NCBI RefSeq assembly: GCF_002854065.1
Contig: NZ_CP024147.1
Direction: 5' to 3' (one strand)
Source of the DNA: Escherichia coli
GTDB taxonomy: Bacteria; Pseudomonadota; Gammaproteobacteria; Enterobacterales; Enterobacteriaceae
DNA: 64,000 nt
The translations under genes and the position numbers were made by a program. The notes under the pieces were generated by a model. That model was not told the DNA's origin. It saw only the letters and a list, made by a program, of their open reading frames with translations, and ran no database searches. Of the stretch, positions 3,701 through 53,787 are shown in pieces; position 1 is the stretch's first letter, and every line of letters starts with the position of its first letter.

Positions 3701-3718
3701 TGTAATTTATTATTTACA
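3701..3718. promoter_or_regulatory. TyrR box (TGTAAT-N6-TTTACA) in aroL control region
   Basis: tgtaatttattatttaca matches TyrR box consensus TGTAAA-N6-TTTACA; aroL is a known TyrR regulon member. Confidence 0.55.
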
Positions 3719-3776
3719 CTTCATTCTTGAATATTTATTGGTATAGTAAGGGATGTATTGAGATTTTCACTTTAAG

Positions 3777-3794
3777 TGGAATTTTTTCTTTACA
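3777..3794. promoter_or_regulatory. second TyrR-box-like site upstream of aroL
   Basis: tggaattttttctttaca (TGGAAT-N6-TTTACA); a gtactagtt TrpR-like half-site follows at about 3804-3812. Confidence 0.45.
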
Positions 3795-3881
3795 ATCGAA
3801 ATTGTACTAGTTTGATGGTATGATCGCTATTCTCATGACACCGGCTTTCGCCGCATTGCGACCTATTGGGGAAAACCCACG

Positions 3882-4406
3882 ATGACACAACCTCTTTTTC
3901 TGATCGGGCCTCGGGGCTGTGGTAAAACAACGGTCGGAATGGCCCTTGCCGATTCGCTTAACCGTCGGTTTGTCGATACCGATCAGTGGTTGCAATCACA
4001 GCTCAATATGACGGTCGCGGAGATCGTCGAAAGGGAAGAGTGGGCGGGATTTCGCGCCAGAGAAACGGCGGCGCTGGAAGCGGTAACTGCGCCATCCACC
4101 GTTATCGCTACAGGCGGCGGCATTATTCTGACGGAATTTAATCGTCACTTCATGAAAAATAACGGGATCGTGGTTTATTTGTGTGCGCCAGTATCAGTCC
4201 TGGTTAACCGACTGCAAGCTGCACCGGAAGAAGATTTACGGCCAACCTTAACGGGAAAACCGCTGAGCGAAGAAGTTCAGGAAGTGCTGGAAGAACGCGA
4301 TGCGCTATATCGCGAAGTTGCGCATATTATCATCGACGCAACAAACGAACCCAGCCAGGTGATTTCTGAAATTCGCAGCGCCCTGGCACAGACGATCAAT
4401 TGTTGA
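3882..4406 (+). CDS. aroL: shikimate kinase II
   Basis: [26 protein letters not shown]... Walker A motif; 174 aa. Confidence 0.95.
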
Positions 4407-4446
4407 TTTTCGAGCGCCTATACTTAACGTTCATCCCGTGAAATAA

Positions 4447-4647
<201 letters not shown>

Positions 4648-4904
4648 CCGCATCAGACTGCTCGGAAGGGATTCTGAGTGCCACTACAAGGGATCTGCGT
4701 CACATTTTTCATAATTCATGTTTTTCAAATAATTAGAATATTAAACAATAACAATCCATTACTGGAATCATTTGGAATCTTTACATTATGCCGTGCACGT
4801 CTGCTGCTACGCTTTTTGTCATTTGTAGCACAAGTAAGTGTCAGCAGTGGTGCTTAACACTTGCCCGGTAATTAACGACGAAATAAAAGTAAGGTGGAAG
4901 AACA

Positions 4905-5582
4905 ATGAGTGCGTCGTTGGCGATCCTGACCATCGGCATTGTACCTATGCAGGAAGTTTTGCCGCTCCTGACAGAATACATTGACGAAGATAATATTTCC
5001 CATCATAGCCTGCTGGGGAAGTTAAGCCGCGAAGAAGTGATGGCGGAGTACGCGCCAGAAGCAGGCGAAGACACAATTCTCACATTATTAAATGACAACC
5101 ATCTGGCCCATGTTTCGCGTCGCAAAGTAGAGCGTGACCTGCAAGGTGTGGTTGAAGTGCTCGATAATCAGGGCTACGACGTCATTATATTAATGAGTAC
5201 GGCAAACATTAGTAGTATGACTGCGCGTAATACGATCTTTCTTGAGCCGTCGCGGATATTGCCACCGCTGGTTTCCTCTATTGTTGAAGATCATCAGGTG
5301 GGGGTTATCGTACCGGTTGAGGAGTTGCTGACCGTTCAGGCGCAAAAATGGCAAATTTTGCAGAAACCGCCGGTATTTTCATTGGGTAACCCCATTCATG
5401 ATTCAGAACAAAAAATCATTGATGCCGGGAAAGAATTACTGGCGAAAGGCGCAGATGTCATCATGCTGGATTGTTTGGGATTTAACCAGCGTCATCGCGA
5501 TTTACTGCAAAAACAGCTCGATGTTCCTGTCTTGCTCTCTAACGTATTGATTGCACGGTTGGCTGCGGAATTACTGGTGTAA
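4905..5582 (+). CDS. aroM: AroM family protein
   Basis: 225-aa [25 protein letters not shown]...; RBS AAGGTGGAAG. Confidence 0.9.
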
Positions 5583-5653
5583 TTTTGCGTGACAGCCAGC
5601 GCCTCTGGCCCCTATAGTGAAGTAGATGTTCAACTACCAGACAGGGCCAGTTT

Positions 5654-5938
5654 ATGCTTCAAAGTAATGAGTACTTTTCCGGCAAAGTGAAATCGATCGG
5701 CTTTTCCAGCAGCAGCACTGGTCGCGCCAGCGTGGGTGTTATGGTTGAAGGCGAATACACCTTCAGCACCGCTGAGCCGGAAGAAATGACGGTAATCAGT
5801 GGCGCGCTGAATGTGTTACTGCCTGACGCGACCGACTGGCAAGTGTATGAAGCCGGTTCGGTGTTTAATGTTCCCGGTCACAGTGAGTTTCATCTGCAAG
5901 TTGCCGAACCCACCTCTTATCTGTGCCGCTATCTGTAA
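5654..5938 (+). CDS. ppnP: pyrimidine/purine nucleoside phosphorylase PpnP (YaiE)
   Basis: 94-aa [17 protein letters not shown]... matches YaiE/PpnP. Confidence 0.9.
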
Positions 5939-7078: not shown

Positions 7079-9134
7079 TATCATTACCCGCTAACTTCAG
7101 CAATCAAAATAAACTGGTGGTGAACGGTAATTTAACGATTTCCGGCGATTATGATGATTATCTGTCAGGTAATGGTCATCTGATTGTATTAGGTAATGTT
7201 ATTGTCGATAACTTTATTAATCATGATTTCGCGTATGTCAAAGGACAGATGACCGCGAAAGGTTTAGTTTATGCTGATTACAATGATCATAACTTTGAAG
7301 TGATGAAGGGAATTAGTGCGCGAGGCATTATTGTTTCCGATAAAGCAACGCAATTTGAAGTCATTAAAGCTGAATTTTATATCAATGAAGATGGAAGTGG
7401 TGAAGGATATAACTGGGATGAGAATATTCAAAAAGCCTATTCACTGGTGACTGCCGATCTTTATGATCACACTGAAATCGAAACCGATAACATTTCCAAT
7501 GCGTATCCTGACTATGATAGCGTCGCAGACAACATCGTTCAGGGTTTACCGCTTTTTCGAGATAAAGCCGCTCCTGAAATTAATGAGAAATTAAAATGGA
7601 TTGAAACGGGGAAACTCGATAATTTCCCAGCGAATAAAATAAAGCATCAAGATCCACTGGTGGCACGTTTGCTGACTCATACAGAGAGTTTATCACCCGC
7701 CGTTATGCTGCAACTGTTACAGCACCCCGATGACCAGACGCGTGAATCGATGGCGCAGTCCTGGCCCGCTCAACAGATGCATTTGCTTACCGATGAATTA
7801 ATTAAAGATGAGGCTGTTGCCAGAGGGCTGGTTAAAAACAGTAATATTTCCGCCGATGTGAATAAAAAATTAATGTCTGTACCCGTCGAGAGCGTACAGC
7901 TGGAGCAGGCCAGACAGGATAATCTTTCTCCAGATATTGTTGCGTCGTTAAGTCATAGCCCCTTTCTCAGTGTACGCAAGACATTACTCAGCCATTACGA
8001 TTACGCCTGGCTGGTTCCGACTGCAGTGGCCGATGAGTTGATAAATAACGAAGACCCGGAGTTACGTGAAAGAATTACCGGAGCAGATTTAACCGCACAA
8101 CAAGCAGTGATGTTGAGTAAAGATAAATCACTGAAAGTTCGTGAAGCATTAGCCCGGACGCTTACTGAATTAAAAATTACCCAACTGTCAGCAACCCTGC
8201 GTACAGAGGATATTGAACGTATCGCAGAACAAATGTATCTGGATAATAAAGAAAATAAAAATATCGTAAAGGCGTTATTGATAGCGTTGCCGGAGATGCG
8301 TCAACTGTCTCTGGCAAAAGAAGATGTGCACAATTTGCGCGAAGGTGCGCGTTATCTGACATCGAAGGACGTGATTAGTTATCTATTGACTCAGCATGAT
8401 GTTCCCACCGTCTGGGATGAGCTGGCACGCGATAAATTATTGCCGCTGGAATATAAGAAACAGTTATGGCAACGCACATTAAATTTAATGATGAGCAAAC
8501 GGCAAGAAGATCAAGAGCAAGCCTACGAAGTACAGCTGGCGCTGATTGATAATGGTGTTGTTGACGAAGAGATGTTAAATAATGCCATTGATTTACTGGT
8601 TGATTTACCCGCTGAATACCGCTATCGAATGCGTAACCAATTATTTGATAATAAAGATTTATCTTCCGGAATTATCAACAAACTCGATCAACAGTATCGC
8701 TTCAACTCTGACTGGGCGCTGTCTGTTGTCAGTATGAAAAATAGCACCCGTAGGCAAAGTGAAAGAGGATTACACCGCTGGAACCGTGAGGATAGCGATA
8801 TTTTTGCAGAACTGGCGACGATAAAAGATAAATCAGATGATGAATGGTGGCGTGCATTGCTGCAAAGTCGCAATGATCATTTGCGCCAAACGGCATTACG
8901 CAACGCACATACCCCGGCGTCGTTGTTAACGACATTGACTGAGCCTCAGGATCGGTCGCTGGCTATTAATAATCCACAGCTGGCTGCCGATGTGAAAACG
9001 GCGTGGTTAAAAGAGGATCCATCATTACTCTTATTTGTCGAACAACCCGATCTTTCGCTGTTACGTGATTTAGTGAAAACCGGGGCAACGCGGAAAATTT
9101 GCAGTGAAGCGCGTCACCGGCTTGAGGAAAAACA

Positions 9135-49112: not shown

Positions 49113-50483
49113 TTATGCCTGGCGAATTGCCTGTTCAACATCAAAGCGATTCGTCACTTTGCTGTCGATTTTCACATAAGCTGAATGTTCTTCTTCTGCA
49201 ATCAACACTTCTTTGATGCCTTCAGTTTCTAGCAAACGCACTTTTAACGCCTCGTTTGCGGCAATGTTCGCCGGGATTTCAATGCGCAAGCTGCTGACAT
49301 ACGGCGGTTCTTTCATGGTACTGGCGACTGCCAGCCACACTGCGGCCAGCATTGCGCCAGCGAGAAATACGCCCTGACCGTCAAACATGCCGTCAATCCA
49401 GCCGCCCAGTGAACCGCCAATCGCCACGCCAAGAAACTGGCTGGTGGAGTAAACACCCATCGCCGTACCTTTGTAACCTGCTGGCGACTCTTTACTGATA
49501 AGTGAGGGCAGGAGGGCTTCCATCAAATTAAACGCCACAAAGAAAAGCTGCACGCCGACCACCAGTTGCCAGAACTGCGTTTGCGCGTTCCACAACACAA
49601 TTTCCGCAACCACGATCAACCCGACGCAGAAGACAAAGACTTGCTTCATTTTGCGCTTAACTTCAGCGTAGATAATGAAAGGCACGACCGAGCCAAAGGC
49701 GATTAGCATTGTCGCCAGATAGACCTTCCAGTGTTCAGCCGCCGGGAACCCCGCATCAGCCAGTTGTCCGGGCAGGGCAACAAACGTCGACATCAGCAAA
49801 ATATGCAGACACATAATGCCAAAGTTGAGTTTCAGCAGCCGCGGTTCCGCCAGCACTTTACTGAAACTGCCTTTCACCATTCCGGACTCACGATTAAGTA
49901 CGTGAGTGCTACTGTTGGGCACAACCCAAATGGTCAACGCAATGCCGGTCGTTGCCAGAATAGCGATCATCCAGAACAGCGCGTGCAGCCCAAGTTTGTG
50001 AGTGATGATCGGGCCAAGCACCATCGCAATGGCAAAGGTAATGCCAAAGCTCACGCCGATAAACGCCATTGCTTTGGTGCGGTTTTGTTCGCGCGTGAGA
50101 TCGGAAAGCAGCGCCATAACGGCAGCGGCAATCGCACCGGAGCCTTGTAGCGCCCGACCCAGAATAATTCCCCAGATGGAGTCAGAGAGCGCAGCGATAA
50201 CGCTACCGGCGGCAAACACTGCCAGCCCACCGACAATTAATGGTTTGCGACCAATGCGGTCGGAAAGCAGGCCAAACGGAATCTGAAAAACGGCCTGAGT
50301 CAGACCATAAATACCAATGGCAATACCGATTAATGCTTCGCTGGCACCTTGCAGAGCCATGCCGTACGTGGTCAGAACCGGCAGAACCATGAACATGCCC
50401 AGCATGCGCAACGAGAATACGGTCCCTAAACCCCAGGTCGCGCGCCGCTCACCTGGTGTCATTTTATAATCGTTCATTACCAC
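49113..50483 (-). CDS. yajR: MFS transporter YajR
   Basis: 456 aa, 12 TM-like segments, C-terminal soluble tail; MVMNDYKMTPGERRATWGLGTVFSLRMLGMFMVLPVL. Confidence 0.9.
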   Translation of the reverse strand: MVMNDYKMTPGERRATWGLGTVFSLRMLGMFMVLPVLTTYGMALQGASEALIGIAIGIYGLTQAVFQIPFGLLSDRIGRKPLIVGGLAVFAAGSVIAALSDSIWGIILGRALQGSGAIAAAVMALLSDLTREQNRTKAMAFIGVSFGITFAIAMVLGPIITHKLGLHALFWMIAILATTGIALTIWVVPNSSTHVLNRESGMVKGSFSKVLAEPRLLKLNFGIMCLHILLMSTFVALPGQLADAGFPAAEHWKVYLATMLIAFGSVVPFIIYAEVKRKMKQVFVFCVGLIVVAEIVLWNAQTQFWQLVVGVQLFFVAFNLMEALLPSLISKESPAGYKGTAMGVYSTSQFLGVAIGGSLGGWIDGMFDGQGVFLAGAMLAAVWLAVASTMKEPPYVSSLRIEIPANIAANEALKVRLLETEGIKEVLIAEEEHSAYVKIDSKVTNRFDVEQAIRQA

Positions 50484-50883
50484 CTCTTAAAAAAATGCCC
50501 ACATAGTGTAGTGCGGAGCGCATGTTGGGTAAACAGAGTGTTAATGAGAAAATATTACAGAGGAGAATAATTTGTGTGTCAGGTATGTTTTTTGCATTCA
50601 TAAAATGAATGCTCTATATGTTGAAAAAATGAATTTTAAAGCTAAATAGTTTTACATCAAAAAAATAATAATATCATTTCTTGATTACCATGTGCATTTT
50701 TTATCTTACGAATATGCTAGTTTTATCTTACTAAATAAACGATTTGGTGACATGGATGATAATGTTTCAGGCTAAATGTGTGCTTATTACTTGGGCCTTT
50801 ATGGCACTGTATTTATTCATTAAATGGATGTTTGGTGGTTAATTATTATGGAAGTATATGACAGTGAGGACATAAAGGTATAC

Positions 50884-51819
50884 ATGTTAACTAAAAGAAT
50901 ATTATTTTCTTTAATGCTAATAGTTTCACCAGGCGTGGTGGCAAGCGAGAAAGCGCATGAATTGTATGACAGCATATACGGTGGTCAACCTGCGCCCGAT
51001 GTTATAAATACACTGCATAAAATGGCTGAATTGGGAGATGTCGACGCGCAGAGCCTGTTAGGCTGGGAATATTATCAGCCTCGCTATGATACCAAACCTG
51101 ATGTTCAGGAAGCGATTAAATGGTTCGAGTTAGCCGCTAAACAAGGTGACAGAGAAGCTCCGTTAGCGCTGGGGAGTATCTACTACATCGGTGAGCTGGT
51201 GCGGGTGGATTATGCCAAAGCGTATGCACTATTTAATCAGGCCGCGCAATACGGTGTGAATTTAGCATGGTCCAGGTTGGGCATGATGTACGCCAATGGT
51301 CAGTATGTTGAGGTAGATTGTAAGAAAGCGAAGGAATATCTTGATAAAGGTGTCCACATTTATGGTGGTCCGGAAGACTTTCTGGCTACATGTCGAAAAG
51401 ACATGATTGACAGAAAAACGGTTGACGATACGTTACCCGTGATCACGGTTACCCGTTCTGGGATGCGGGATAATTTTTTAGATAAAGATTTTTCCTGCAT
51501 GGATAGCCTCTTCGCCACCACCAATAAATTAGGCGAAGTGGCCAATCTTCGCGTGACATTCAGCATTCGTAGCCCATCCGGTAAGGAGATTAACCAAACG
51601 GTTGGCTTCGCGCCTTTCGGTTTAAACCGGCTGAATATTAGCTTTACTGATTACATATTTGATTCATTTACCAGTAATTCGTCTCTAATTCTTTATAAAC
51701 CGGAATTTGAGCGAAAATCTTGTGCAACTGTAAGGACCACAATCGTTGCCGCAACGGCAACCATTAACGGCAAGGATGTGGAGTTGCTGAAAGCGGGGGC
51801 AATTGAACAAAAGTGGTAA
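50884..51819 (+). CDS. Sel1-repeat (TPR-like) secreted protein with uncharacterised C-terminal domain; accessory
   Basis: ATG at 50884 after AAAGG RBS; signal peptide MLTKRILFSLMLIVSPGVVASE; Sel1 repeats (DAQSLLGWEYY, AIKWFELAAKQGDREAPLALGSIYYIGELVRVDYAKAYALFNQAAQYG, LAWSRLGMMYANGQYVEVDCKKAKEYLDKG). Confidence 0.75.
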   Translation: MLTKRILFSLMLIVSPGVVASEKAHELYDSIYGGQPAPDVINTLHKMAELGDVDAQSLLGWEYYQPRYDTKPDVQEAIKWFELAAKQGDREAPLALGSIYYIGELVRVDYAKAYALFNQAAQYGVNLAWSRLGMMYANGQYVEVDCKKAKEYLDKGVHIYGGPEDFLATCRKDMIDRKTVDDTLPVITVTRSGMRDNFLDKDFSCMDSLFATTNKLGEVANLRVTFSIRSPSGKEINQTVGFAPFGLNRLNISFTDYIFDSFTSNSSLILYKPEFERKSCATVRTTIVAATATINGKDVELLKAGAIEQKW

Positions 51820-51874
51820 CGCTGCTCAGCCCCCGGCTAAGGCAAAACTTGCCCTGGCGGGTGGCGATAATAAT

Positions 51875-52417
51875 CTAAGCCGCGAGAATATGCTGAATCG
51901 CCAAAAACATAGGTACAGCACCAAAAGCATTTGGTGTCGCTGAAAGCTGAACAAAGCCGAGACGAGCATAAAAGTTAATGGCGGCAGGGTCAGCATCAAG
52001 ATAAACCCCTTTAATTGGTAATGCCTGGTGAATTATTTTTACATGTTCAAAAAAATCACATAGTAGGTCCTGACCAAAGCCCCGCTTTTGATACTTCCGC
52101 GCCACCCCCAACATGACTAATCTGACAACACCAATCTCTGAAGGCTGTGAACCCTGAAGGACGCCAGAAACGCGTTGTTTTTCCAGCGAATATGCCGTAA
52201 AAGTACAGATGCCAATCAGTTCACCACTTTGTCTGTCAATAAGTGCTTTAGCCGCACAGTCGCTATTACGCACACTTTTCTTTAGCGATGTGCGTACAAA
52301 TTTATCGATAACAGGGTTACCGCAATCAAACTGTTTTTGCCCAGGATAAGTAATATCAGACTGATAATTACAGGAGAGGACTATGGGCAGAGTAATCTCT
52401 TCATGCTTGTCGACCAT
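51875..52417 (-). CDS. GNAT-family acetyltransferase, predicted type II toxin (TacT/AtaT/ItaT-like)
   Basis: 180 aa; FDCG motif near N-terminus, acetyl-CoA motif QKRGFGQDLL; overlaps upstream RHH/DUF1778-like ORF by 17 nt. Confidence 0.8.
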   Translation of the reverse strand: MVDKHEEITLPIVLSCNYQSDITYPGQKQFDCGNPVIDKFVRTSLKKSVRNSDCAAKALIDRQSGELIGICTFTAYSLEKQRVSGVLQGSQPSEIGVVRLVMLGVARKYQKRGFGQDLLCDFFEHVKIIHQALPIKGVYLDADPAAINFYARLGFVQLSATPNAFGAVPMFLAIQHILAA

Positions 52418-52712
52418 CGCTGTTTTTCCTTTTCATTAACGCCTTGAGTGCGAGCGTCGGTTGAGCAGGTTCGGCGATGAGTTGGTTCATCAGTTCCCAG
52501 CTTTGATTCGAAAGCTCACGGCGACGTTGGTTATCAAGCACGCTTTCGGCGCGTTCCATAGCAGCGCTCAAAATAAAGGCGCTTAAATCTAACCCAACGG
52601 CTTGCGCAGCTTCACGAAGTCTGTTTTTGGCGTCGGGACTGGTTTTGAGTTCAACCCGCGCATTTTTCAGCGTTTTATCGACATCGGGTAGAGTGGCTGT
52701 TTTTCCAGGCAT
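52401..52712 (-). CDS. predicted antitoxin (DUF1778 / ribbon-helix-helix-like) of the GNAT toxin
   Basis: 103 aa from ATG at 52710-52712 with AAGAGG RBS; MPGKTATLPDVDKTLKNARVELKTSPDAKNRLREAAQAVGLDLSAFILSAAMERAESVL; track ORF extends further upstream (52778) but lacks RBS. Confidence 0.7.
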   Translation of the reverse strand: MPGKTATLPDVDKTLKNARVELKTSPDAKNRLREAAQAVGLDLSAFILSAAMERAESVLDNQRRRELSNQSWELMNQLIAEPAQPTLALKALMKRKNSDGRQA

Positions 52713-52765
52713 TGTGACCTCTTTGATTAACTGAATGAAATCGTAGGGAGTCGATCTCATACATA

Positions 52766-52784
52766 ATACGGCTATCAACCGTAT
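52766..52784. promoter_or_regulatory. operator-like palindrome 1 upstream of the toxin-antitoxin operon
   Basis: atacgg ctatcaa ccgtat (ATACGG-N7-CCGTAT). Confidence 0.4.
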
Positions 52785-52819
52785 GATTAATTTATGTGCA
52801 TCTGCTCACTCTGTCAAGA

Positions 52820-52840
52820 GATACGGTTATTAGCCGTATC
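52820..52840. promoter_or_regulatory. operator-like palindrome 2 upstream of the toxin-antitoxin operon
   Basis: gatacgg ttattag ccgtatc (GATACGG-N7-CCGTATC), same half-site as palindrome 1. Confidence 0.4.
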
Positions 52841-52854
52841 TCTGATCTCAGACA

Positions 52855-52884
52855 ATAAAAAAGGTGCCGTAGCACCTTTTTAAT
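52855..52884. terminator. bidirectional hairpin terminator downstream of cyoE
   Basis: aaaaaa ggtgc cgta gcacc ttttt. Confidence 0.55.
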
Positions 52885-52896
52885 AGAGAGGTTTTG

Positions 52897-53787
52897 TTAC
52901 CACACAGCAGCCAGCAGCGTATGCGAGTCCGGTACCATAAAATCAACGGACATCATCACCGAGAGGGCAGTGATGGCGATGATAGAGAAGCCGAACAGCT
53001 TGCGCGCCCAGATTCTGTCATCAGCAACCTTATAACCGCGCAGGGCCATACCTAACCACCAGACGCTCACCGCCGCGGCGACCACCAGATATTTATATCC
53101 AGCGTAACCGCCAAGAGAGAGCATCAGCGTGGCAACGGCAAAGGCGATGATATACAGCGTGATGTGATTCTTCGCCACCGAAATGCCTTTTACCACTGGC
53201 AATACCGGAATGTTTGCCGCCTGGTAATCCTTAAAGCGGAAAATGGCGATGGCATAGGAGTGAGGCATCTGCCACAGGCTGAAGATAGCCAGCAGGATCG
53301 CTGCGCCGCTATCGAACTCGCCGGTTACTGCACAGTAGCCAATCACCGGCGGCGCAGCGCCGGAGAGCGAACCAATCAATGTGCCGTAGACTGAGTGGCG
53401 TTTCATGTACAGGCTATAAACGCCGACATAAACCACAAAGCCCATCACCCCCAGCCAGCAGGCCAGCGGATTCGCGCCAAACCACAGCAGCATAAAGCCA
53501 GCAATACCCAGCAAGGTGGCGTACACCAGCGAGACAGCAGGAGAGATCAGGCCTTTAACCAGCACCCGATTCTTCGTCCTTTCCATCTTTCTGTCGATAT
53601 CCCTGTCGATGTAGTTGTTAAACACACAACCCGACGCCACAACCAGTGACACCCCAACCAGCGTGTAGATAAACAGGGGATAATCAATGCTGCCCTTTGA
53701 GGCCAGCAGGAATCCCCCAATCACCGAGATCAGGTTGCCAAAGATGATGCCTGGTTTCGTTACTTGCAGGTATTGCTTAAACATCAT
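52897..53787 (-). CDS. cyoE: protoheme IX farnesyltransferase (heme O synthase)
   Basis: [32 protein letters not shown]... 296 aa; start trimmed to ATG at 53785-53787. Confidence 0.95.

Follow-up and report, generated by a model that had tools for sequence, protein, structure and literature searches.

The itaRT module was described in Escherichia coli HS, where ItaT is toxic, ItaR neutralises it, Ile-tRNA is acetylated and the complex of the two proteins represses its own promoter (Wilcox et al. 2018, PMC6125619). In that work K-12 hosts, which are free of the Sel1 gene to be discussed below, needed nothing beyond itaRT for toxicity, neutralisation and autoregulation. Subsequent studies gave the structure of ItaT, its Val/Met specificity and the substitutions G115D and Y150F, both of which abolish toxicity (Zhang et al. 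2020, PMC7367177), and reported that ItaT makes ribosomes pause at Ile codons and that Pth rescues this, ItaT being a member of clade B of Bikmetov et al. (PMC9177977). KacAT of Klebsiella, AtaRT of E. coli O157:H7 and TacAT of Salmonella share with ItaRT the two-gene architecture and the chemistry of aminoacyl-tRNA N-acetylation, but they are distant in sequence, prefer other aminoacyl-tRNA substrates and fall into a different clade.

Two further groups of described proteins are relevant to the locus. Exported bacterial proteins with Sel1-like repeats (SLR proteins) include c5321 of E. coli (4BWR), LpnE of Legionella (6DEH) and HcpC of Helicobacter (1OUV). IrmA (5EK5), which uropathogenic E. 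coli secretes, is an FNIII-like mimic of interleukin receptors that forms a domain-swapped dimer, binds IL-2, IL-4 and IL-10 and is released into the supernatant (Moriel et al. 2016, PMC4807369). The locus considered here lies between yajR and cyoE in a stretch of 64,000 nucleotides of E. coli contig NZ_CP024147.1 (assembly GCF_002854065.1), hereafter called the window. The reading preferred here, with a probability of about 0.9, is that this islet holds two functionally independent modules at one variable chromosomal site, that is, itaRT and a gene for an exported Sel1-repeat protein.

Layout of the yajR-cyoE islet

The first-pass annotation, made from the letters of the window, had placed three open reading frames between yajR and cyoE behind an AT-rich leader of about 400 bp, and had noted that K-12 has no genes there. 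All of this is borne out: the ORF list and the RefSeq annotation have the three frames at the positions given, the spacer of K-12 MG1655 is 148 bp long and gene-free, and the leader (50490-50883) contains 30% G + C against 50% across the window. In the alignment with K-12, DNA specific to the islet starts at about 50560-50575 and stops at about 52850, a size of 2.3 kb; the part of the leader up to about 50559 matches a diverged K-12 counterpart, and the cyoE terminator shared with K-12 begins at about 52855. As for signs of mobility, neither integrase or transposase ORFs nor border direct repeats were found at the islet, and its repeat families are all short and internal. The features are collected in Table 1.

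Table 1. Coordinates of the genes and of the known, predicted and candidate sites in and around the islet
Feature	Position	Strand	Basis or remark
yajR, MFS transporter, left flank	49113..50477	-	ORF list and RefSeq annotation of identical genome; 99% identical to K-12 YajR
AT-rich divergent promoter/leader, yajR to Sel1 gene	50478..50883	.	composition; K-12 alignment
Perfect palindrome GCATTCAT-AAA-ATGAATGC in leader	50594..50612	.	candidate regulator binding site
Gene for 311-aa predicted exported Sel1-repeat protein	50884..51819	+	ORF end 51819; RefSeq start in 100%-identical genome CUWW06
G+C-rich hairpin in 55-nt convergent gap, possible shared terminator	51829..51866	.	centroid stem, z-score -1.2
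itaT, GNAT toxin, aminoacyl-tRNA N-acetyltransferase, 180 aa, 19.8 kDa	51875..52417	-	PDB 7BYY match, Pfam GNAT
itaR, DUF1778/TacA-type RHH antitoxin, 103 aa (from RefSeq ATG), 11.4 kDa	52401..52712	-	Pfam TacA1
Operator-like palindrome ATACGG-N7-CCGTAT, just 3' of -10 element	52766..52784	.	conserved half-sites
Predicted itaRT promoter TTGACA-17-TAAATT	52789..52817	-	10/12 consensus matches
Second ATACGG-N7-CCGTAT copy, adjoining -35 element	52821..52839	.	extended form AGAGATACGG..CCGTATCTCT at 52817-52843
cyoE intrinsic terminator, right islet border	52855..52884	-	common to K-12 and window
cyoE, heme o synthase, right flank	52897..53787	-	ORF list and RefSeq annotation; 100% identical to K-12 CyoE

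The leader is conserved, with a mean column identity of 86% across E. coli, E. albertii and a cryptic Escherichia clade, and the same region stands upstream of a long Sel1 paralogue in a four-gene E. coli variant. A riboswitch or small RNA was dropped as an account of the leader, since a search of 50300-53000 against Rfam at E <= 1 returned no RNA family. The half-site motif of its palindrome recurs in two looser direct copies (50621-50634 and 50816-50829), and the palindrome itself is kept in HS, E. albertii and Escherichia sp. MOD1-EC7003 and degraded in the four-gene variant. At the other end of the Sel1 gene, its stop codon and that of itaT converge across the 55-nt gap. The hairpin in this gap folds no better than shuffled sequences, its T-run is unclear or absent and the terminator scan did not call it, so it is listed as a possible terminator and was rejected as an established bidirectional one.

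The itaRT operon and its candidate operators

Judged by its sequence, the minus-strand pair is itaRT, the toxin-antitoxin module already characterised in E. coli HS. ItaT of the window matches PDB 7BYY, which is ItaT(G115D), over its full length with 178 of 180 residues identical (E 1.6e-117) and differs from the HS orthologue by T43A only (179/180), while ItaR has R31K and L41V (101/103 identical to its HS orthologue); the differences between the two pairs are allelic only. The catalytic Y150, G115 and the acetyl-CoA loop Q110-K-R-G113-F-G115 are retained. Both partners of a GNAT-DUF1778 module are present, namely a toxin with Pfam GNAT domains and, encoded immediately upstream in the same operon, an antitoxin matching Pfam TacA1 (E 2.8e-17). 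Moreover, the calculated masses of 19.83 kDa (ItaT) and 11.40 kDa (ItaR) equal the published 19.8 and 11.4 kDa (PMC6125619), the gene order yajR-TPR-GNAT-DUF1778-cyoE of HS is that of the window, the 17-nt overlap of the two genes is common to both, and the islet DNA including the promoter region is 97.7% identical between them. Matches to PDB chains of the other families were weaker: KacA (E 3.5e-11) and AtaR-type chains for ItaR, and AtaT, KacT and TacT chains (E 1e-5 to 1e-9) for ItaT. NCBIfam gave for all three islet proteins far-sub-threshold matches only (MerG, MotX, AlgK, RelB and MobA), which were dropped as assignments and taken as generic repeat or RHH similarity. The first-pass annotation had read the pair as a type II GNAT/RHH toxin-antitoxin with a 17-nt overlap, and was correct in both respects. 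The pair has been in the literature since 2018, and its biochemistry, crystal structure and in vivo targets have been reported, so finding it again adds nothing new.

Standing one (ItaT) and two (ItaR) residues apart from the HS alleles, the window alleles would be toxic, neutralising and tRNA-acetylating in the same way. In the preferred reading, the first module would occupy 51875-52850 of the minus strand and work as the known type II operon does: with acetyl-CoA as donor, ItaT would transfer an acetyl group to the alpha-amino group of elongator tRNAs that carry their amino acid, mainly Ile-tRNA(Ile) but also Val-tRNA and Met-tRNA, and so block translation elongation; ItaR would bind and neutralise ItaT; and the promoter of the operon would be repressed by the ItaR-ItaT complex, with the two ATACGG-N7-CCGTAT palindromes on either side of the -35 and -10 elements as the most probable sites of action. 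Enzymology, neutralisation and autorepression have been shown in published work on the near-identical HS alleles, and the assignment of the operators is what we infer here.

This assignment is based on the following observations. The window contains exactly two exact copies of ATACGG-N7-CCGTAT, both upstream of itaR, with 55 bp between their centres, and the best promoter match is flanked by them. In HS, the upstream fragment spanning the predicted promoter carries the ItaRT-repressed promoter (PMC6125619). Across five diverged loci, from E. coli to Pseudocitrobacter, the half-sites of the palindromes are invariant while the surrounding DNA has diverged, and the -35 element is also invariant across five diverged loci. 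The motif was searched for in the Sel1 leader and is absent there. The palindromes are most probably the ItaR-ItaT binding sites, and phylogenetic footprinting allows these probable operators to be named.

Distribution and independence of the two modules

Among 5426 complete E. coli genomes, the Sel1 gene was found in 1369, itaRT in 1368 and the whole islet in 1367. About 75% of the genomes are without the whole islet, so joint loss or replacement of the toxin-antitoxin pair and the Sel1 gene has evidently occurred. In other lineages the two modules come apart. Sel1 orthologues without itaRT are found at the same locus in E. albertii, in Escherichia sp. MOD1-EC7003 (cryptic clade) and in E. 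coli R32_14_1F, a long Sel1 paralogue stands alone beside cyoE in another enterobacterium (L008), and Sel1 homologues of Pectobacterium and Affinibrenneria lie in unrelated contexts. Conversely, homologues of ItaT at 69-78% identity, all paired with a TacA1 antitoxin, were located in other settings, namely a P2-like prophage, the cpxP-fieF gap, a CP4-like island and a plasmid-like contig, and no Sel1 gene lies closer than 4 kb to any of them. At the yajR-cyoE locus itself, itaRT was never seen without a Sel1 gene, and in a Pseudocitrobacter MAG (L012) one or more Sel1 genes and itaRT are together beside cyoE. Nineteen E. coli genomes whose Sel1 gene is 80-90% identical had been candidates for further TA-free loci; in the one inspected (L099), a long Sel1 paralogue, a short Sel1 gene and itaRT are all present.

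Joint gain, retention and loss of the three genes were thus not found across genomes, nor were shared transcription or shared regulatory sites, the genes being convergent and the operator motif being upstream of itaR only. The linkage of the Sel1 gene and itaRT in E. coli is accordingly regarded as shared position, not shared function. Its near-perfect degree fits common descent of the locus and is also compatible with a functional link, for example a toxin-antitoxin that stabilises the islet. In the two-module reading, the Sel1 gene would have occupied the site for longer and more constantly, and itaRT would be one among several neighbours that can accompany it. Within Escherichia, every comparison gave the islet genes a dS similar to that of yajR and cyoE, which supports long residence of the islet at this site.

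The stabilising link just mentioned can be put as follows: itaRT would be an addiction module that retains an otherwise dispensable Sel1 islet by selfish stabilisation, with no biochemical link between the proteins. That some toxin-antitoxin modules stabilise unstable genomic loci is accepted (PMC6125619, introduction), the pair is always beside a Sel1 gene at the locus, and 1367 of the approximately 1369 E. coli carriers keep both. We nevertheless consider this unlikely, as the Sel1 gene is kept TA-free in E. albertii, the cryptic clade and L008 with a dN/dS of 0.2-0.4, well below 1, as both Sel1 genes are intact in a locus with a truncated itaT (L005), and as the pair and the Sel1 gene have evidently been lost or replaced together in the islet-free majority of E. 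coli.

A further reading, likewise improbable, gives the chromosomal itaRT a principal role in anti-phage defence by abortive infection and regards the islet as a small defence or accessory hotspot. In its favour are an ItaT homologue of 72% identity which, with its TacA1 antitoxin, is flanked by gpA and the portal gene in P2-like prophages (L093 and L094), a position where anti-phage systems have been shown to accumulate (PMC9122126), and the homologue in the CP4-like island. However, PADLOC has no match for any of the three islet proteins, giving nothing for ItaT, ItaR or the 325-aa protein of E. albertii and a sub-threshold repeat-like match only for the Sel1 protein. In addition, GNAT/DUF1778 pairs are unmentioned by Rousset et al. 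(PMC9122126), the physiological role is not known according to the ItaT papers (PMC6125619), and the other yajR-cyoE configurations seen hold no recognisable defence gene.

The first-pass annotation had suggested that the Sel1 gene and the pair form an undescribed three-gene system, in which the Sel1 protein would be a sensor, adaptor or third component controlling or controlled by ItaR-ItaT; this is scarcely credible in spite of the near-perfect co-occurrence in E. coli, the adjacency in a second genus and in the four-gene variant, and a Pectobacterium carotovorum locus with a long Sel1 homologue near a GNAT/DUF1778 pair, because the genes occur independently in other genomes, as the annotation itself had named as the finding that would count against it (Sel1 without the pair in three Escherichia lineages and L008, and the pair elsewhere without a nearby Sel1 gene), itaRT is self-sufficient in the K-12 hosts mentioned above, the orientation is convergent with no operator copy in the Sel1 leader, the predicted export signal of the Sel1 protein would place it in a different compartment from the cytoplasmic tRNA on which ItaT acts, and PADLOC has no matching multi-gene system. 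The P. carotovorum case was rejected as a recurrent association, its pair being a different one (24% identical) that lies 2 kb off behind unrelated genes, and the other Pectobacterium loci have no GNAT/DUF1778 pair nearby.

The predicted exported Sel1-repeat protein and its significance

The product of the Sel1 gene is, as far as its sequence indicates, an exported, uncharacterised protein that is independent of the toxin-antitoxin pair. The first-pass annotation had called it secreted. This label is plausible in view of a signal-like N-terminus, with cleavage predicted after VVA (residue 21), and of conserved cysteines, and it remains an inference. Helical Sel1 repeats extend over residues ~16-178 (one significant and two weak Pfam matches) and are tandem repeats of PF08238 that form an SLR solenoid. 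They are followed at ~187-310 by a C-terminal β-sandwich of IrmA-like fold, a seven-stranded FNIII-like sandwich that superposes on IrmA, the closest solved fold, with 17% identity in the structural alignment. The profile of this domain matched no chain among the PDB sequences at E <= 10, so that homology to IrmA was not detected by sequence. A literature search with the presumed locus tags of the gene, and with Sel1 together with yajR or cyoE, found nothing on the gene.

The comparison with known proteins has its limits. The SLR proteins c5321, LpnE and HcpC are without a C-terminal β-sandwich and have 21-24% identity to the Sel1 protein, so their functions are not transferable. IrmA is a stand-alone 13-kDa domain co-transcribed with agn43, whereas the domain in the window is fused behind Sel1 repeats. 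This C-terminal β-sandwich is rare and constitutes a small unreported point.

In the two-module reading, the second module would extend from about 50560 to 51819 on the plus strand as a separately transcribed gene with its conserved AT-rich leader, and would encode a protein that leaves the cytoplasm by the Sec route and is probably disulfide-bonded, with Sel1 repeats followed by an IrmA-like β-sandwich of FNIII type at the C-terminus; it may be a periplasmic or released protein-binding adaptor. More speculatively, the 311-aa protein might belong to a very small, undescribed exported family, mostly of Enterobacterales, that combines Sel1 repeats with an IrmA-like FNIII domain, and might act in commensal and pathogenic phylogroup A/B1 E. 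coli as an adaptor binding host factors or envelope proteins, like IrmA or other SLR proteins; we hold this conceivable and rather doubtful. If it were true, selection on a surface that contacts a partner would account for the elevated dN/dS of the Sel1 gene. In a weaker form of the suggestion, itaRT would help to retain the Sel1 gene at the yajR-cyoE site.

For the ItaT family, the pair in the P2 anti-phage hotspot provides a testable hint on the physiological role of these toxin-antitoxins. For the islet, the analysis indicates that the juxtaposition of Sel1 gene and toxin-antitoxin is a neighbourhood in a variable intergenic site and no new system, which cautions against proposing a three-gene system from linkage alone. 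Finally, an uncharacterised, predicted exported Sel1/IrmA-like protein is encoded in one quarter of the complete E. coli genomes, including laboratory strains derived from BL21 (for example T7 Express and Nico21(DE3)), HS, O104:H4, O26 and O111.

Identity of the islet genes

Between yajR and cyoE the window carries a Sel1-repeat gene and, convergent to it, the minus-strand genes itaR and itaT, which overlap by 17 nt. These three reading frames, the overlap and an AT-rich leader had been described in the first-pass annotation and were all borne out by the ORF list and its coordinates; moreover, CUWW06, a genome 100% identical to the window over the islet, is annotated in RefSeq with exactly these three genes, labelled "tetratricopeptide repeat protein", "GNAT family N-acetyltransferase" and "DUF1778 domain-containing protein". 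The leader (50490-50883) has a G + C content of 30% against 50% for the window, and the convergent stop codons of the Sel1 gene and itaT are 55 nt apart. That K-12 has no gene here also proved right: the spacer in MG1655 is gene-free and only 148 bp long. Alignment to K-12 places the borders of the extra DNA at about 50560-50575 on the left and about 52850 on the right, just before the cyoE terminator common to K-12. The stretch 50490-50559 has a K-12 homologue which is about 60% identical by eye, whereas the adjacent coding flanks are 97-99% identical; this divergence suggests that the yajR promoter region exists as two old haplotypes, one linked to carriage of the islet and the other to its absence.

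Features of the yajR-cyoE interval in the window
Feature	Coordinates	Strand	Basis or remark
yajR	49113-50477	-	left flank
Sel1-repeat gene	50884-51819	+	ORF list; RefSeq start ATG taken from CUWW06
C-terminal beta-sandwich domain of Sel1 protein (residues about 187-311)	51441-51816	+	AlphaFold model
itaT, 180 aa	51875-52417	-	ORF list
itaR, 103 aa from annotated ATG	52401-52712	-	ORF list
Palindrome ATACGG-N7-CCGTAT, two copies	52821-52839 and 52766-52784		bracket the promoter match
Sigma-70 match TTGACA-17-TAAATT	52817-52789	-	best match in region
cyoE	52897-53787	-	right flank

Pfam matches are Sel1 repeats in the Sel1 protein, GNAT domains in ItaT and TacA1/DUF1778 in ItaR, and the earlier reading of the minus-strand pair as a GNAT/RHH toxin-antitoxin (TA) module is correct, the pair being nearly identical to ItaR-ItaT of E. 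coli HS. Along its full length the toxin aligns with PDB 7BYY (E 1.6e-117, 178 of 180 residues identical), and since this entry is ItaT(G115D) of strain HS (PMC7367177), one of the two mismatches is the engineered mutation. At the same site the HS chromosome has the order yajR, TPR protein, GNAT, DUF1778 and cyoE as in the window, with T43A as the sole difference in ItaT and R31K and L41V in ItaR. The window's ItaT keeps G115, the acetyl-CoA loop Q110-K-R-G-F-G115 and the catalytic Y150, and the calculated masses of ItaT and ItaR (19.83 and 11.40 kDa) agree with the 19.8 and 11.4 kDa in the literature (PMC6125619). The pair is thus itaRT, an already published system at its published locus.

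The mechanism is carried over from the literature on the HS alleles and not inferred from the window. ItaT alone stops growth and translation, co-expression of ItaR rescues the cells, and the toxin acetylates Ile-tRNA(Ile) (PMC6125619) and also Val-tRNA and Met-tRNA (PMC7367177). Its toxicity is lowered by G115D and by Y150F (PMC7367177); ribosomes pause in vivo at Ile codons, and Pth counters the toxicity (PMC9177977). The promoter on a 172-bp upstream fragment is repressed by the ItaR-ItaT complex, not by ItaR alone (PMC6125619). In the window the two palindromes around the promoter match, with centres 55 bp apart, are the only exact copies of the motif in 64 kb. An alignment of the itaR upstream regions of the window, HS, a divergent four-gene E. 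coli, a Pseudocitrobacter MAG and a related metagenomic contig shows no change in the half-sites or the -35 element, while the DNA around them diverges. Because of this conserved footprint and the published repression by the complex (PMC6125619), the palindromes are likely ItaR-ItaT binding sites.

The Sel1-repeat protein

The N-terminus of the Sel1 protein, MLTKRILFSLMLIVSPGVVA|SE, is signal-like, basic at its start, hydrophobic in its core (mean Kyte-Doolittle 2.4) and with small residues in a cleavage motif, and the mature protein contains four cysteines, three invariant and one nearly invariant among homologues; from these features we infer that it is exported and disulfide-bonded. An AlphaFold model built with 13 homologues (mean pLDDT 84.5) gives a helical Sel1 solenoid at residues 16-178, followed by a beta-sandwich at 187-310, for which there is no Pfam family. 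The predicted sandwich resembles IrmA, an FNIII-like protein that is released, forms a domain-swapped dimer and binds IL-2, IL-4 and IL-10 (PMC4807369), but the likeness is one of fold, because the domain profile matches no PDB chain at E <= 10; homology is not demonstrated and the function is not transferable. Among 1.84 billion representative proteins the clusters that the profile reached at E <= 0.001 number only 33, and several are fragments; in nearly every full-length cluster the domain is C-terminal in a longer protein, and those read have Sel1 repeats upstream. Full-length relatives occur only in Escherichia, Pseudocitrobacter, Pectobacterium and Affinibrenneria, and a literature search found no paper mentioning the gene. 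The leader contains a perfect palindrome, GCATTCAT-AAA-ATGAATGC (50594-50612), conserved in E. albertii and a cryptic Escherichia clade, and looser copies of the motif TTCATAAAATGAAT at 50621-50634 and 50816-50829; the palindrome is a possible regulator site.

States and probable history of the yajR-cyoE site

Among 5426 complete E. coli genomes the Sel1 gene is present in 1369, itaRT in 1368 and the whole islet in 1367, at yajR-cyoE every time. The site (window span 50478-52896; loci surveyed include L003, L005, L008, L011, L012, L099 and L100) is a small hotspot of variation, for which at least six configurations are seen in Escherichia and related bacteria. It is empty in K-12, O157:H7 and CFT073 (state 0), and holds the short Sel1 gene with itaRT in the window and HS (state 1). 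A long Sel1 gene (about 500 aa) precedes these genes in E. coli CP057686 and the Pseudocitrobacter MAG (state 2), and in the metagenomic contigs L005 and L006 the long and short Sel1 genes and itaR are accompanied by an 80-aa N-terminal itaT remnant (state 3). The short Sel1 gene stands with an unrelated 325-aa signal-peptide protein and without the TA pair in E. albertii, Escherichia sp. MOD1-EC7003 and E. coli R32_14_1F (state 4), and the long gene alone adjoins cyoE in another enterobacterium, L008 (state 5).

In L005 (5972-6544), an enterobacterial contig, and likewise L006, itaR is intact and 85% identical, and the ItaT remnant is without the acetyl-CoA loop and Y150; this itaR is an orphan antitoxin left behind after the toxin decayed. 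Clusters of truncated ItaT are frequent in Shigella, too (P0086, P0141, P0142). The 325-aa protein (L003:6048-7025 in E. albertii, L100:3109-4086 in R32_14_1F) is encoded 3' of the Sel1 gene and in the same orientation, itaRT being absent; its N-terminus, MFSHSVKSITAVLLLLWTIFPVSAQA, is signal-like, it has no significant match in Pfam and none in NCBIfam or PADLOC, and it occurs in only one of the 5426 genomes.

In the four-gene E. coli the region 5' of the long Sel1 gene is 80% identical to window 50300-50859, and from 50884 on the window aligns to the short gene of that variant; the one- and two-Sel1 forms therefore have a promoter region in common and differ in having or cleanly lacking the long paralogue. 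Against E. albertii, dS is 0.39 for Sel1, 0.27 for yajR and 0.26 for cyoE; against the four-gene E. coli it is 0.40 for Sel1, 0.24 for itaT, 0.32 for yajR and 0.13 for cyoE; against the Pseudocitrobacter MAG it is saturated for Sel1 and itaT. Because islet genes and flanking core genes have similar dS in every within-Escherichia comparison, the data favour prolonged residence through vertical descent, or homologous exchange via the flanks, over a recent insertion. The Sel1 protein evolves faster than ItaRT or the flanks, yet under purifying selection: dN/dS is 0.21-0.37 in three within-Escherichia comparisons against 0.05-0.12 for itaT/itaR and 0.02-0.06 for yajR/cyoE, and window and HS differ at 15 residues in Sel1, one in ItaT and two in ItaR.

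One system or two, and the ItaT family elsewhere

The first-pass annotation had not recognised the juxtaposition of Sel1 and the TA pair as a described system, but a novel Sel1 + TA combination is not supported: Sel1 occurs without the pair at yajR-cyoE, and ItaT homologues (69-78% identical, each with an upstream TacA1 antitoxin) occur in a plasmid-like contig, the gpA-portal gap of P2-like prophages, the cpxP-fieF gap and a CP4-like integrative island, with no Sel1 gene found within 4 kb in any of the four contexts. Within E. coli the two look inseparable, and outside that population the three-gene arrangement comes apart; independent occurrence in other genomes, which the first-pass annotation had named as refuting its reading, is thus observed. 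In addition, the genes are transcribed convergently, the Sel1 leader contains no copy of ATACGG-N7-CCGTAT, itaRT functions alone in K-12 hosts without the Sel1 gene (PMC6125619), and the predicted compartments differ, the Sel1 protein being predicted to be exported and the ItaT substrate being cytoplasmic aminoacyl-tRNA. One coupled system is not supported, and on the simplest reading a Sel1 gene is the old resident of the site and itaRT one of several interchangeable neighbours.

In Pectobacterium carotovorum (L013) a 485-aa long-form homologue of the Sel1/IrmA-like protein (4320-5777) and an unrelated GNAT/DUF1778 pair (7760-8485, 24% identical to ItaT) are 2 kb apart, with HTH genes and an unknown ORF between them; the proximity is probably a coincidence in an accessory region, the GNAT gene being absent from other Pectobacterium loci.

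In the P2-like prophages L093 and L094 the gpA replication gene and the portal gene flank a TacA1/GNAT pair (3709-4540 in each), and its toxin shares 72% identity with ItaT. Rousset et al. 2022 (PMC9122126) showed this locus to be a hotspot for anti-phage systems. The central TA pair is already known, and the points unreported so far are minor: a family of uncharacterised Sel1/IrmA-like proteins predicted to be exported, the likely ItaR-ItaT operator sites, and the P2-hotspot context, which hints that the physiological role of ItaT-family modules may be in defence.
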